Below, one piece after another: positions 1 through 28,612 of a stretch of DNA of 28,612 bases. The position numbers were made by a program, and so were the translations under genes. Under the pieces are notes generated by a model that searched no databases, was not told the DNA's origin, and worked only from the letters and a program-made list of their open reading frames with translations. This DNA is from an uncultured Thermococci archaeon (GTDB lineage: Archaea > Methanobacteriota_B > Thermococci > Thermococcales > Thermococcaceae): NCBI GenBank assembly GCA_964615185.1, contig CAZTOS010000025.1, positions 1 through 28,612 of the forward strand, read 5' to 3'. Each line of letters starts with the position of its first letter. Within the stretch, counting starts at the first letter, position 1.

Positions 1-55
1 GCCTACCCGCTATGAAATTAACACACTACACGCTCTTAACGGGTAGGCAGAACGG
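1..55. repeat. Left terminal copy of a hairpin-containing repeat (inverted copy at 28560-28612)
   Basis: Positions 3-55 are the exact reverse complement of 28560-28612. Internal IR GCCTACCCG (1-9) / CGGGTAGGC (40-48) around a 30-nt spacer. Abuts the middle of cbiM. Confidence 0.95.
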
Positions 56-577
56 ATACTCGGTGCTTTCTTGGGATATACAGTTTATACCAAGCTAAAG
101 AGCATAAATGAAATTGTAGCAATTGGAATAACATCATGGCTCTCAGTGTTTCTGGCATCAGTTCTGGCAGCAATCGAAATTGGAATAAGCAAAAGCTTAC
201 CCTTTGGAAAGGTTTTAACGCTCATGGCAGGCTACCATGCAATAATTGGAATAGGTGAAGCCATATTGACCATAATAATCGTCCAGGCAGTTAGAGCTAA
301 GCTCCCTGAGATAGGGGGGTGTTCCTGTATGAAAACAATAGTCAAGGGATTAATTATCATTATCATCTTGCTTGCAATAGCTTTACCATTTGCCTCAAAT
401 AACCCCGACGGATTGGAAGCAACTATGGAAAAAGTTGGACTCGAAGAACAGACAGTTTATGAAGCACCATTCGATTATGGAGAAACATGGGGACAAAGTA
501 TAGCTATGGGGCTGATTGGGATAATTTTAGTCTTCGGAGTAAGCTATGGGCTTGCTAAATTGATAAAGGGGGCTTAA
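56..577 (+). CDS. cbiM: 5'-truncated Co/Ni ECF substrate-binding component CbiM, read in frame into a PDGLE domain
   Basis: Open frame from ATA at 56 (ILGAFLGYTVY...) with CbiM C-terminal motif MAGYHAIIGIGEAILT. N-terminus is missing at the terminal repeat. Followed by cbiQ and cbiO. Confidence 0.85.
   Translation: MLGAFLGYTVYTKLKSINEIVAIGITSWLSVFLASVLAAIEIGISKSLPFGKVLTLMAGYHAIIGIGEAILTIIIVQAVRAKLPEIGGCSCMKTIVKGLIIIIILLAIALPFASNNPDGLEATMEKVGLEEQTVYEAPFDYGETWGQSIAMGLIGIILVFGVSYGLAKLIKGA
329..577 (+). CDS. PDGLE-domain (NikN-like) small membrane component, probably a separate gene in origin
   Basis: MKTIVKG...ASNNPDGLE motif and two hydrophobic segments. ATG at 329 sits in an ATGA overlap context. 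Confidence 0.7.
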   Translation: MKTIVKGLIIIIILLAIALPFASNNPDGLEATMEKVGLEEQTVYEAPFDYGETWGQSIAMGLIGIILVFGVSYGLAKLIKGA

Positions 578-579
578 AC

Positions 580-1236
580 TTGTATCTGCCCTTTCTTTTA
601 ATTTATGCTCTCGCAGTTGTTACAAGAAAAAGTTTGAGTGAGCTCACGTATTTTGGGGTAGTTCTTGTTGGACTGATTATCTTTTTAAGACCAAAAAAGA
701 GCATTTTTAAACATTTGGGATTTTTACTTGGATTTGAAGGCCTATTGTTCATTCTCGCACTTTTTAATCCTGGTGAGCCCTTAGTAAGCACACCAATTGG
801 GGCCATAACAAAAGAAGGAATTTATTCATTTTTCTTGCTTTTAGGAAGGGCTTTCTTGTCTTCTTCAGCTGTTGTTGTGACATCTAACTCTTTAGGCTTC
901 TCAAGGCTTTTGGCTGAAATGGAAGAGCTCAGATTTCCAAGGATACTGATTTTAACGCTTGCATTCACTTACCGGTATCTTGACTTGTTCAAAGATGAAG
1001 CACTGAGAATGAAACGAGCCTTAGATTCAAGAGCTTTCGGCATAGGGAAAAGGGAATATTATCAAAAGCTCGGTGCATTACTCAGCGAGATTTTTGTGAG
1101 AGCTTACCTCAGAAATGACAAGATTTACAAAGCAATGCTTTCAAGATGCTTTGGCGAATTTCCAAAATTCGAAAGACATAAAAGCATCATGCCATTAATC
1201 TTCAGCGTAATTGCGCTGATAGGTGTGCTGATATGA
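580..1236 (+). CDS. cbiQ: ECF transporter transmembrane T component (CbiQ-like)
   Basis: Hydrophobic N-half, YRYLDLFKDEALRMKRALDSR and AMLSR motifs. TTG start. Confidence 0.88.
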   Translation: MYLPFLLIYALAVVTRKSLSELTYFGVVLVGLIIFLRPKKSIFKHLGFLLGFEGLLFILALFNPGEPLVSTPIGAITKEGIYSFFLLLGRAFLSSSAVVVTSNSLGFSRLLAEMEELRFPRILILTLAFTYRYLDLFKDEALRMKRALDSRAFGIGKREYYQKLGALLSEIFVRAYLRNDKIYKAMLSRCFGEFPKFERHKSIMPLIFSVIALIGVLI

Positions 1237-3128: not shown

Positions 3129-3605
3129 AGTATCCCCCCATAATGAGTCCAATGATAATTGCAATGATAAAGCTCAGTCCATTTCTAAGCAACGCCAGCT
3201 TTTTCCCAATGTTCTTATTTCAAGAGGCAAAGTGACCATTCCAATCATTGTCAGTGTAGTTATAAAGACTGCAACTGAGGTAATCGAAGCTCCTTTTTCA
3301 AGGAGAGATGCCGCCAACGGGAAAGATATCAACGAAGGGATATGCAGTACTGCTCCCAAAAGTGCAACGGTAAGCACTCCTCTAAACCCTGCATTTTCAC
3401 CAACAATCTTGGAAATTTGACTTTCTGGCACGAAACCAGAAAGTAGGCCTATAATGATTATTATGGCAAGAACAGTGGGAAATATTCTAAAGAATGAAAT
3501 CACTGCCATCTTTAGTGCTTGTTTTGTTTTTGTCCTATCTTTTATTAAAGCAAAAACCAGACATACACCAGCTAAAGTATTTATAAACAGAGTAGTCACA
3601 TTCAT
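3125..3605 (-). pseudogene. Predicted permease DUF318-like subunit A, frameshifted near 3' end
   Basis: HIPSLISFPLAASLLEKGA motif. The final TM helix (LRNGLSFIIAIIIGLIMG) lies in another frame after the A-run at ~3200-3204. One more G in the G-run at 3134-3139 would give a TGA overlapping the ATG at 3128. Confidence 0.75.
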
Positions 3606-9689: not shown

Positions 9690-10583
9690 CTATAAAACTC
9701 CTATCAACTTTAATTCATTTTTTAAATTTTTCAACTCTGTTTCATCCAAAAAAACCAAAGGACTTCTAAGTTTTCCCATATCAATACCTCTGAGTTTTAA
9801 GGCAGCTTTAATCCCGGACAGATAAGGGTATTTTTTCAAAATTTGTCTTATCTTAAGAATTTTATCCTGAATCTCTTTGGCCTTTTTCAGATTTCCTTTC
9901 TTAAATTCCCTATATAGTTCAACAACCATTTCAGGAAAGACATTGGCTATTGCTGAAACTGCTCCATCTCCCCCCAATACCAAGTGGGTATAAATTAAAG
10001 CATCACTTCCCCCCAGGAATACAAAATCTTCTCTTTCTTCTTTAATCGTAGTGATGGCATTGTAAAACCACGTGACGTCTTTGGAACTATCTTTAATGCC
10101 AACGATGTTTTTTATTTTAGAGAGAGCAACCAGTGTGTCAATGCTCATCTTGTTTCCTGTTCTACCCGGGATGTAATATATCAAAATAGGTAAATCAACT
10201 TCTTCACTTAATTTGGTATAATGTTTCAGCAGTCCATCTTTGGACAGGGGATAGTAGTATGGGATCACTACATGGATTGCATCAACCCCAATTTTTTCTG
10301 CATACTTGCTGAGCTTTATTGTTTCCCTTGTGCTTATGCTCCCAGTTCCAGCTATTATTGGAATTCGTCCATTAACTACTTCTGCAGACAATTTCATAAT
10401 CTGCATTTTTTCTTCCATATCCAAAGATGGCCCTTCTCCATTAGTTCCCAACAAAAAAAACCCATTTACTCTCTTTTTAATTAGAAATTCCAAGAACGAT
10501 ACGAGTTTTTCCTCATCTATACTCTCATCTTCTTTGAAAGGCGTGACTACTGGAGGAAACACACCCTCAAACACCCTTCTCAC
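9690..10583 (-). CDS. DapA/NAL-family class I aldolase, probable 2-keto-3-deoxy-(6-phospho)aldonate aldolase
   Basis: VTPF, GTNGE, PYYY, YYIPGRT, Schiff-base KDSS. GTGA overlap with a KdgK-like kinase. Confidence 0.85.
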   Translation of the reverse strand: MRRVFEGVFPPVVTPFKEDESIDEEKLVSFLEFLIKKRVNGFFLLGTNGEGPSLDMEEKMQIMKLSAEVVNGRIPIIAGTGSISTRETIKLSKYAEKIGVDAIHVVIPYYYPLSKDGLLKHYTKLSEEVDLPILIYYIPGRTGNKMSIDTLVALSKIKNIVGIKDSSKDVTWFYNAITTIKEEREDFVFLGGSDALIYTHLVLGGDGAVSAIANVFPEMVVELYREFKKGNLKKAKEIQDKILKIRQILKKYPYLSGIKAALKLRGIDMGKLRSPLVFLDETELKNLKNELKLIGVL

Positions 10584-11552: not shown

Positions 11553-12731
11553 TCAAGCAGTGACACCAATTCTTTCAATTGAAAATTCAAAATGTCCCGA
11601 TTTTTCAGACTTCGTTAATTCGCCATTTGCCACCTTTATGATTTTTTCAATTATTTTCTCCTTTCCAAGCTCCAGCATTTCTTCAAGAGAGACATCATCT
11701 CTACGGAGCATCTCCTTCAAAATAAAGCTTAAATCAACATCTATAGCATCATGAAGACGTTTGGCAGTGTCTGCATTCCCGGTGATTTTTATTACAGGTG
11801 AAACTGGGGAGCCAAGATAAGTTCCAAGACCAGTTGTGAAAAGAACAATGTGCGCTCCACCACTGACGAGCCCTGTTACTGCCTGCACATCGTAGCCAGG
11901 ACCATCCATAAAGTATAATCCCCTTCCAGGCGGTCTTTCCCCATAGTCCACACAACCCTCCAATGGGACACTTCCAGTTTTTTTAATTGCACCCAGCGAC
12001 TTTTCTTCTATTGTTGTCAAGCCACCTCTTATATTACCCATGGAAGGCTGAGAGCCAATCCAGTCAACACCCATCTTATTAACATCTTCCACAGCTTTCC
12101 TGATTCTTCTCAGAAAATCCTCTGCAATATTCTTATCCTTAGCCCTCTTTGCTATTAGATGCTCAGCTCCTACAACCTCAAGTCTCTCGGTAAAAATCAC
12201 TGTAGCACCCTGCTCAACGAGAAAATCAACAACTTTCCCCACAGCGGGGTTTGAGATGAGCCCTGATGTAAAGTCAGATGCTCCACATTTCAGCCCTATT
12301 ACAAGCTCATCAATGGATGTTGTATCTTTCCTTGGCTTTAATGACTCTTTTGCACTGTTGATTAGCTCCACCCCTCTTTCGATTACTTTTTGGATACCTT
12401 CCTCCTGTATCAAGAGTGCTTCAGCATTTCTCCCCCTATTAGAGATTCTGTCTGCTATCTCGTAACTATCTACCCCCTCACATCCCAGCCCCACAACCAA
12501 AGTCCATGCAACGTTTGGATGTGCACCAATCCCCACTAATGTCCTCACAAATTGCTTTTTGTCCCTTCCAAACATTCCACACGCTCCATTCTCTTGTACC
12601 ACTGGAATTGCATCAGTTCTCCTGGCTATTTCTAATGCAGCGTAATTGGCACAAGCTACTGAGGACATGACAATGATGTGGTTTCTTATTCCAAAATCTC
12701 CATTTTCCCTTCTCCACCCAGTTATCTCCAT
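11553..12731 (-). CDS. UxaA/GarD-family sugar-acid dehydratase, catalytic subunit
   Basis: GIRNH, SVACA, HPN, VGLGCE, LKCGASD, GNIRGGLTTIEEKSLGAI, FTTGLG. Confidence 0.9.
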   Translation of the reverse strand: MEITGWRRENGDFGIRNHIIVMSSVACANYAALEIARRTDAIPVVQENGACGMFGRDKKQFVRTLVGIGAHPNVAWTLVVGLGCEGVDSYEIADRISNRGRNAEALLIQEEGIQKVIERGVELINSAKESLKPRKDTTSIDELVIGLKCGASDFTSGLISNPAVGKVVDFLVEQGATVIFTERLEVVGAEHLIAKRAKDKNIAEDFLRRIRKAVEDVNKMGVDWIGSQPSMGNIRGGLTTIEEKSLGAIKKTGSVPLEGCVDYGERPPGRGLYFMDGPGYDVQAVTGLVSGGAHIVLFTTGLGTYLGSPVSPVIKITGNADTAKRLHDAIDVDLSFILKEMLRRDDVSLEEMLELGKEKIIEKIIKVANGELTKSEKSGHFEFSIERIGVTA

Positions 12732-28218: not shown

Positions 28219-28559
28219 TCACCCTTGATACAGATGACACGCCACATAGTGTCCAGGGCTAACTTCCTTTAATTCTGGTTCAATCTTACTGCAAATCTCT
28301 GTTGAATATGGACACCTGGTATGAAACTTGCATCCACTTGGTGGATTTAATGGACTGGGAATATCCAGACTTTTGAGCTTCAATGGCTTCCTTTTTCTTG
28401 AGAGTTCTGGATCTGCCACAGGAACCGAGGATATTAGAGCCTTGGTATATGGATGCAATGGATTCTGAATAACTTCCTCAGCAGCAGCTACTTCTGCGAT
28501 TTTTCCGAGGTACATAACGGCTATTGAACCCCCTCCTTTCGCTGAAAAATACCGAGCTG
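28219..28559 (-). CDS. 3' part of an Opp/Dpp-family ABC ATPase (OppF/DppF-like), 5'-truncated
   Basis: AARYF...[32 protein letters not shown]...C...VACH. Cut by the terminal repeat just after the expected HDL switch motif. Confidence 0.9.
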
Positions 28560-28612
28560 CCGTTCTGCCTACCCGTTAAGAGCGTGTAGTGTGTTAATTT
28601 CATAGCGGGTAG
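28560..28612. repeat. Right terminal copy of the hairpin-containing repeat
   Basis: Exact reverse complement of positions 3-55. Confidence 0.95.

Follow-up and report, generated by a model that had tools for sequence, protein, structure and literature searches.

The 53–55 nt found at both ends of the analysed window, i.e. the whole 28,612-nt stretch of DNA from an uncultured Thermococci archaeon, form in our reading (probability about 0.93) the right end (RE) of a multicopy IS607-family insertion element, one copy of which sits in cbiM and another in a relic of oppF, both pointing inward, and it is at these copies that the k=55 assembly broke. The window is the entire contig C25 of an assembly of 138 contigs and 2.26 Mb. 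The element is an ordinary member of the known IS607 kind; the genome contains three or more copies of it, and two of these bracket the window. The features are as follows:

1..55, forward strand: RE of element copy 1 (its last 55 nt), pointing into the contig; the 55-mer is shared at a branch of the assembly graph, continues into tnpB in the metagenome contig L021 and has its left-end (LE) partner in the last 51 nt of contig C42.
2..46, forward strand: last 14 codons of tnpB (translation not shown) with the TAG stop (44–46); the encoded C-terminus agrees at every residue with the 392-aa TnpB of metagenome contig L020 and is one residue off the 393-aa TnpB of genome G026.
1..48, forward strand: conserved hairpin with arms 1–9 and 40–48, the predicted terminal stem-loop in the omega-RNA scaffold of TnpB (fold z = -4.64; covariation in 26 members).
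19..40, forward strand: 22-nt subterminal motif in the hairpin loop, a candidate TnpA binding site; inverted copy (19/22) of LE positions 15–36.
48..55, forward strand: invariant terminus CAGAACGG, whose last two bases are the GG exchange dinucleotide (CAGAACG, alignment columns 108–114, invariant in 26/26 copies; column 115, the last G, in 25/26).
56..75, forward strand: putative guide segment of the predicted omega-RNA of copy 1, the first ~20 nt of the cbiM flank, assigned from the published TnpB mechanism.
47..577, forward strand: 3' part of cbiM, interrupted by copy 1 (Pfam CbiM positions 113–204 of 205; the 5' part lies at the right end of C42).
28219..28559, reverse strand: relic of an Opp/Dpp-type ABC ATPase, C-terminal part, beside copy 2 (28219–28557 matches Pfam oligo_HPY, the C-terminal domain of these ATPases, only).
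28560..28612, reverse strand: RE of element copy 2 (its last 53 nt), pointing into the contig; its terminal 55-mer is common to the right end of contig C46, and its LE partner lies at C62:154, followed by 32 tnpA codons.

Identity of the repeat and the assembly break

As the initial annotation had reported, the reverse complement of positions 28560–28612 equals window positions 3–55 with 0 mismatches (pattern search of the assembly contigs), and an exact match over 53 nt cannot be chance. The search of the whole assembly that it had proposed yielded a third copy of the 53-mer, which terminates contig C46 (19303–19355, minus strand), and no seed of 14 nt or more from the 53-mer in the interior of any of the 138 contigs. 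Its suspicion that the contig was broken at a multicopy repeat with k near 55 was borne out as well: across the assembly, contig ends have a terminal 55-mer exactly in common in 42 adjacent pairs and 17 branching pairs. Exact 55-nt overlaps of this kind are characteristic of de Bruijn assembly with k=55 and thus account for the lengths of 55 and 53 nt. The left end of C25 consists of the last 55 nt of the repeat, and the right ends of C25 and C46 share its last 53 nt plus CA, which is included because both flanks happen to begin with CA. Contig C42, in turn, ends with TGGG and 51 nt of the left end of the element, TGGG being a 4-nt target common to another copy. At all three REs in the genome (3/3) the loop lies in one orientation, reading inward, since all of them are flanks of one element end and start with one common RE k-mer. 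With k=55 the assembler was unable to cross the repeat, so that C25 both begins and stops inside element copies.

The element thereby orders three contigs, C42(+), IS, C25(+), inverted IS and C62(+), and explains two contig breaks. The two copies stand in inverted orientation around a segment of 28.5 kb; despite this, gene order is colinear with that of the relatives G002, G003 and G007 on both sides. As a side observation, such inverted bracketing of a 28.5-kb segment resembles a composite transposon or an inversion substrate.

Read in frame 2 from its start, the window encodes the C-terminus of TnpB (18 letters of translation), and after the tnpB stop codon the 55-mer runs on to the element terminus ...GCAGAACGG. 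In a separately assembled metagenome of this population the exact 53-mer occurs twice; the contigs concerned, like sequencing run X1, may share the sample of the window and are not independent of it. The first, L021, matches C25 at 100% identity for 3055 nt and extends 69 nt further into tnpB at the cbiM junction, reading ...ALKMWGVSVPPESPPMKTGGGK ahead of the first codon of the window. The second, L020, is 100% identical to C46 over 3053 nt; here the 53-mer is internal to a contig of 59.6 kb, where it ends a complete 392-aa ORF, and the C46 locus contains a complete element of 1437 bp inside a flavoprotein gene. Two further genomes, one of them complete and from another genus, contain the 53-mer with 2–3 mismatches. 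In G026, a complete genome from a sister genus, it ends a 393-aa tnpB with 2 mismatches and belongs to an element of 1852 bp with the order LE, tnpA (207 aa), tnpB, RE.

The element, which the initial annotation had called unclassified, is placed in the IS607 family by the profile matches of both proteins. The 392-aa TnpB ORF matches NCBIfam guided_TnpB with 176.4 bits (cutoff 100) as well as Pfam Cas12f1-like_TNB (79 bits) and OrfB_IS605 (37.5 bits). The G026 TnpA matches the NCBIfam equivalog for the IS607 family transposase (NF033518) with 238.8 bits (cutoff 110) and carries a Pfam HTH_17 domain (8–57) ahead of a Resolvase domain (62–194), i.e. it is a serine recombinase. In a cluster lookup, TnpB formed an unnamed singleton cluster and the exact G026 TnpA sequence was without a record. 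The first 32 tnpA codons are assembled in the genome of the window itself (C62:2–97) and are 93.75% identical to G026. Otherwise, tblastn of the element proteins against the contigs of this genome returned paralogues of at most 32% identity over long stretches and short C-terminal relics; the body of tnpA and tnpB is absent from these contigs and was probably lost to a contig-length cutoff or during binning. For both copies beside the window, the total size is deduced and not directly seen. Nevertheless, the second alternative of the initial annotation, the end of a larger mobile element, has held up, as the 55-mer encodes the C-terminus of TnpB and the full element is present in L020 and G026.

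Insertion sites and interrupted genes

The 5' part of cbiM, located at the right-hand end of C42, reads ...CTCAACATGGG and is followed by the 51 nt CTGTTTTGTAAATGG... of the LE; these 51 nt and the TGGG ahead of them agree fully with L020 over the left-end junction. In the closest relative (L005) the cbiM site is uninterrupted (...CTCAACATGGGGATACT...). The LE junction at the oppF relic reads ...CATGACTTTGGG|CTGTCTCATAAATAG... on C62 and continues into the start of tnpA; the corresponding site in the relative G007 is again uninterrupted (...CATGATTTTGGGGCAGCTCGC...). The immediate junctions are ...CATGGG|CTGT... on C42 and ...TTTGGG|CTGT... on C62, and the empty sites in the relatives read CATGGGGATACT (cbiM) and TTTTGGGGCAGCTC (oppF relic). 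Comparison of occupied with empty sites shows that both insertions took place at TGGG^G by exchange at a GG dinucleotide, with GG at both junctions and without target duplication. TGGG lies ahead of the LE in the copies in cbiM, oppF and the flavoprotein gene, and ACGG forms the end of the RE. In 5/5 further complete copies the LE directly follows GGG.

The initial annotation had also advised looking for empty sites. Besides the intact cbiM of L005 and the uninterrupted oppF-relic site of G007, we found one among the sequencing runs, which were examined as Logan contigs: in a contig of run X3, from a different study, ...CTCAACATGG is joined directly to the sequence from window position 54 onward, with 10 differences over window positions 54–700. 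This is an empty cbiM site in nature. The flanks of the element differ between the 3 RE junctions in the genome and further ones in runs X1, X3 and X4; overall, contigs from 4 sequencing runs, which belong to 4 studies, show the element next to differing flanks.

Two observations concern single junctions. Record 3 of run X1 shows a variant RE seemingly without ~23 nt of the 5' arm and loop of the hairpin, which by eye seems to be a deletion between two CTAC repeats; this variant is joined to another flank, GCCTTTTCAGC..., which is also present in run X4. In G026, a GC-rich hairpin, CCTCGCCCTTTAGGGCGGGG (L018:4886–4921), lies just outside the LE, with the element copy 16 nt downstream of it; this copy may have inserted next to the right end of another TnpB element.

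Both flanking genes had been described as broken in mid-CDS. For cbiM this is correct, its 5' part being found on C42. The Opp/Dpp ATPase gene, in contrast, is already a 5'-truncated relic without its N-terminal half in G007, where it begins at LSGGQ right after the stop codon of the upstream gene; in the genome of the window, ~170 nt more of it have been replaced by ~270 nt of AT-rich non-coding DNA (C62:155–463). Similarly, the common orientation noted for the repeat relative to the sense strand of the broken genes applies to this genome, where the sense strand of tnpB is that of the broken gene at 3/3 junctions, but does not extend to a rule: a crude open-frame test over 32 family junctions scored 10 as sense, another 10 as antisense and left 12 unclear, a noisy result in that the known-sense C46/L020 junction was misclassified and counted twice. 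The shared orientation with the host genes looks like chance, with no evident bias. For the organism, the outcome is a cbiM gene knocked out by a recent, polymorphic insertion, the gene being intact in relatives and in another vent sample.

The terminal hairpin and the predicted omega-RNA

The 55-mer contains the internal inverted repeat that had been recognised initially: GCCTACCCG (1–9) and CGGGTAGGC (40–48) form a 9-bp stem with a loop of 30 nt. Folded as RNA, the 55-mer reaches -18.1 kcal/mol (z = -4.64), a value equalled by 0/200 shuffles. For the 160-nt RE folded alone we obtained z = -0.11 (87/200 shuffles), and the hairpin was absent from the minimum-energy fold; single-sequence folding of the 160-nt RE is uninformative. 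The alignment comprises 26 distinct copies, each of 115 nt from GAAGATGTGGGG to the terminus; left out were L034 (105 nt), L050 (79 nt), L046 (truncated) and both L047 and L049 (without recognisable terminus). In the terminal hairpin 8/13 pairs change on both sides and 93.8% of the cells are paired, with compensated stems such as GCCTACCCG/CGGGTAGGC vs GGTTATCCG/CGGATAACC vs GGTCAGCCG/CGGCTGACC. Two more covarying helices lie upstream, within the tnpB coding region, and in the second helix 3/6 pairs covary. Taking the three helices together, 95.2% of the cells are paired and 11 pairs change on both sides; in controls with the partners slid by 1–3 columns, 34–52% were paired (at most 51.5%). 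The covariation score was reached by 0/500 shuffles, and RNAalifold independently predicts the same three helices. The hairpin covaries even though its 5' arm belongs to the tnpB reading frame. As wobbles and A-C mismatches occur at about the same rate in the helices, the covariation is silent on which strand is folded and on RNA versus DNA.

Judged from these sequence data, the hairpin is most likely the guide-adjacent last stem-loop of the TnpB omega-RNA. Consistent with this, the conserved secondary structure overlaps the 3' end of tnpB and the RE, as expected of an omega-RNA, and the LE-adjacent TGGG, the predicted TAM, equals the transposase target and differs from the RE-adjacent ACGG. 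When the whole G026 element was scanned against Rfam, no family matched the RE; hits were confined to HgcC (E = 0.78) and sot0042 (E = 0.25, a weak resemblance to the 3' end of a haloarchaeal tnpB-associated RNA), which fall on a short GC hairpin outside the element, near its LE.

The loop of the hairpin also shares a motif with the other end of the element. In a direct comparison of 22-mers between LE and RE the best match was 19/22, which 0/2000 shuffles reached; a repeat search of the full element at seed 7 found the hairpin (I5) and missed this motif. By eye, a shorter GYGTWAAGTT-like core recurs in the ends of divergent copies, and the extreme termini are alike at 6/8 positions. We regard the LE/RE motif as a candidate, probable binding site of TnpA.

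The same loop motif, inverted at the left end, could also be taken to mean that the hairpin acts as DNA, i.e. as a structure for recombination or binding by a transposase, like the subterminal hairpins on which the Y1 transposases of IS200/IS605 elements act in single-stranded form, and that the covariation reflects this role. The covariation would allow it, as it separates neither DNA from RNA nor one strand from the other, and the copies without tnpA need some enzyme acting in trans. Nonetheless, we consider this explanation rather unlikely: the sole transposase seen in the element family is a serine recombinase, a kind of enzyme that acts on double-stranded DNA at a GG core (available part of PMC6188088), the TGGG sites with GG at both junctions are a serine-recombinase signature, and the two further covarying helices in the tnpB coding region would be expected of an omega-RNA scaffold.

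Returning to the omega-RNA, we propose the following mechanism, which draws on published work on IS607 and TnpB. TnpA would excise and integrate the element as double-stranded DNA, and the 22-nt inverted LE motif in the hairpin loop would probably be its binding site. The RE would be transcribed together with the 3' end of tnpB into an omega-RNA with the hairpin as its last stem-loop, and the first ~16–20 nt of the flank (window positions 56–75 and 28559–28540) would serve as guide. After excision, TnpB with its omega-RNA would cut the emptied site of TGGG and flank, and repair would restore the copy; the ACGG of the RE in place of TGGG would spare the occupied site.

Element forms, competing readings and known relatives

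Behind the LE (CTGT...), the element carries one of two genes, tnpA (for a serine recombinase whose HTH is N-terminal) or a small RHH gene; tnpB comes next, and last the RE ending in ...GCAGAACGG. The long form, with tnpA and tnpB, is represented by the 1852-bp copy of G026, and the short form without tnpA by L020 (1437 bp), L024, L032 and L034, with lengths of 1413–1437 bp. In place of tnpA, the tnpA-less copies (4/4) contain a conserved ORF of 54–56 aa that overlaps the start of tnpB (L020:4181–4342, minus strand) and gives weak Pfam RHH matches below the curated cutoffs (19.9 vs 27 and 17.7 vs 20.5 bits). The 90%-identity cluster of this RHH-like ORF has 14 members, from several named Thermococcus genomes among others, annotated as 'hypothetical protein' or 'ribbon-helix-helix domain-containing'. 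The copy in cbiM has the LE of the short form and the copy in oppF the LE of the long form with the start of tnpA; at the RE, the final 53 nt or more are common to the two. With a 240-nt query spanning the RE (E ≤ 1e-5), the RE family was detected in 60 of the 97 genomes of the family.

Reduced relatives of the element are present in the same genome. C113:2361–2603 (minus strand) is a 243-bp gene-less miniature of the IS607-type family with both ends and no ORF; its LE begins CTGTTCCATAAATGG..., the hairpin stem of its RE is different but compensated, and its terminus reads ...GCCAGAACGG. Solo RE relics at C46:~12561–12683, C13:~3163–3277 and C8:~9865–9979 lack the body of tnpB and comprise its last ~30–42 codons together with the hairpin and CAGAACGG; decayed copies or independent templates for guide RNAs are possible readings. 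Apart from these, six contig ends (C7_L, C18_L, C36_L, C100_L, C122_R and C130_L) finish with ...TTATCCTGACAGTATC and mark a second multicopy element, whose flanks at C7_L/C122_R and at C18_L/C130_L are reverse complements over 8–9 nt, which suggests a classical IS with terminal inverted repeats and 8–9-bp target duplications.

The copies flanking the window could themselves be short, gene-less, MITE-like derivatives of the IS607-type element, consisting of LE and RE only. Such a derivative exists in this genome (the 243-bp C113 miniature, with both ends and no ORF), the body of tnpB is missing from the bin, and the cbiM copy is documented by 124 nt of RE and 51 nt of LE only; yet the C62 copy runs from its LE into 32 tnpA codons, and at the cbiM junction the 124-nt RE (by eye) and the 51-nt LE with its TGGG are identical to the full 1437-bp copy in L020. 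We hold gene-less copies at these two sites to be distinctly improbable, and either way the same element family would be concerned, not the 62-bp unit of the initial annotation.

That unit, a self-contained palindromic MITE (CCGTTCTGCCTACCCG-N30-CGGGTAGGCAGAACGG) with an inverted repeat continuing outward, has practically nothing left in its favour: apart from the 9-bp stem adjoining AGAACGG, whose complement could conceivably lie upstream of the contig start, it conflicts with the bases preceding GCCTACCCG, which are GGAGGAGGGAA, i.e. tnpB coding sequence, and not CCGTTCT in L021 (the same junction), L020 and G026, with the same orientation of the loop at all three ends, and with the tnpB reading frame that passes through. 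A MITE would moreover have its inverted repeat at both termini of non-coding DNA, and the upstream sequence here is that of tnpB. The chance that a library adapter, a vector or an assembly artefact caps the contig, which the initial annotation had left standing, is negligible: contig ends are the only location of the repeat in this assembly, always in the same inward orientation, but this orientation follows from the k-mer graph, and the sequence recurs with 2–3 mismatches in two other genomes, one of them complete and from a different genus, is internal to the 59.6-kb contig as part of a conserved protein-coding gene, and belongs to an RE family found in 60/97 related genomes and with distinct flanks in 4 runs from 4 studies. 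A suspected artefact can thereby be removed from the record. As further candidates, the 3' end of a group II intron and a tRNA-derived attachment site were dropped given the tnpB frame and the IS607 transposase.

The IS607-family element that remains can be compared with described systems. IS607 elements insert at GG, prefer (G)GG, generate no duplications and have GG at their termini (PMC6188088, as far as the available part of this source goes). Like IS607 of Helicobacter pylori and IS1535, the present element has a TnpA that is a serine recombinase with an N-terminal DNA-binding domain, and an accessory tnpB; it also shares with them the lack of a target duplication, GG in termini and target, the (G)GG preference and subterminal repeated motifs (same part of PMC6188088). 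Indeed, we find a serine-recombinase TnpA with N-terminal HTH, a downstream tnpB that ends at the RE, insertion at GG without duplication, and both varied and empty sites. Unlike IS607 and IS1535, the element is archaeal (Thermococcaceae), and many copies carry a small RHH gene instead of tnpA. A further difference is the 22-nt subterminal inverted motif (19/22), since the available part of PMC6188088 describes IS607 elements as being without terminal inverted repeats.

For the IS607-family IStron of Clostridium botulinum, the accessible portion of bioRxiv 10.1101/2023.11.20.567912 gives TGGG as the target of TnpA and as the TAM of TnpB, and an omega-RNA scaffold ending in ...UCGG. The target TGGG is the same in our element, for which a TGGG TAM is predicted; the scaffold ends in NCGG next to the guide in both (UCGG there, ACGG in the RNA predicted here), so that the occupied site differs from the TAM at -3, and the omega-RNA, putative in our case, overlaps the 3' end of tnpB and the RE (same portion of bioRxiv 10.1101/2023.11.20.567912). 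Unlike the IStron, the element has no group I intron match (no Intron_gpI in the full G026 element, Rfam scan with E ≤ 1), and its nuclease activity, TAM and RNA are deduced from sequence. The haloarchaeal IS1341-type tnpB-only elements with 'sot' RNAs (PMC4615843, available part) are likewise archaeal, transposase-less and equipped with a structured RNA, here a predicted one, at the 3' end of tnpB; in contrast to them, our RE is without an Rfam sot match, and the ends of the tnpA-less copies are those of their IS607-type partner element. Finally, Arc is an accessory RHH repressor of IS605-family transposons (bioRxiv 10.64898/2026.09.24.754181, available part). Its position resembles that of the small RHH-like gene just upstream of tnpB inside the element in 4/4 tnpA-less copies (same part of bioRxiv 10.64898/2026.09.24.754181); the present gene differs in that its RHH matches lie below the Pfam cutoffs, in that it belongs to an IS607-type archaeal element, where it replaces tnpA, and in that its function is putative.

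A joint reading, which we advance tentatively as possible rather than probable, is that in this Thermococcaceae lineage the 55 nt combine three overlapping functions, namely tnpB codons, the guide-adjacent stem-loop of the omega-RNA and, in its loop, the right-hand TnpA motif, and that the RHH-tnpB copies, which have no tnpA but retain the motifs of both ends, would be non-autonomous and moved in trans by the TnpA of longer copies and kept by their own hyperthermophilic TnpB with a TGGG TAM, under an Arc-like regulation. This overlap of coding sequence, RNA stem and DNA motif in the last 55 nt, together with the RHH-tnpB derivatives, is mildly interesting; knowledge of the IS607 family is unchanged, and the biological interest is modest. 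What is gained is a well-delimited IS607-type element from an archaeal hyperthermophile, for which the exact ends, the empty sites and the TGGG target are documented and covariation supports an omega-RNA model. In addition, tnpA-less RHH-tnpB derivatives that share their ends with an autonomous partner are documented, and the element may be of use in searches for thermostable TnpB nucleases.
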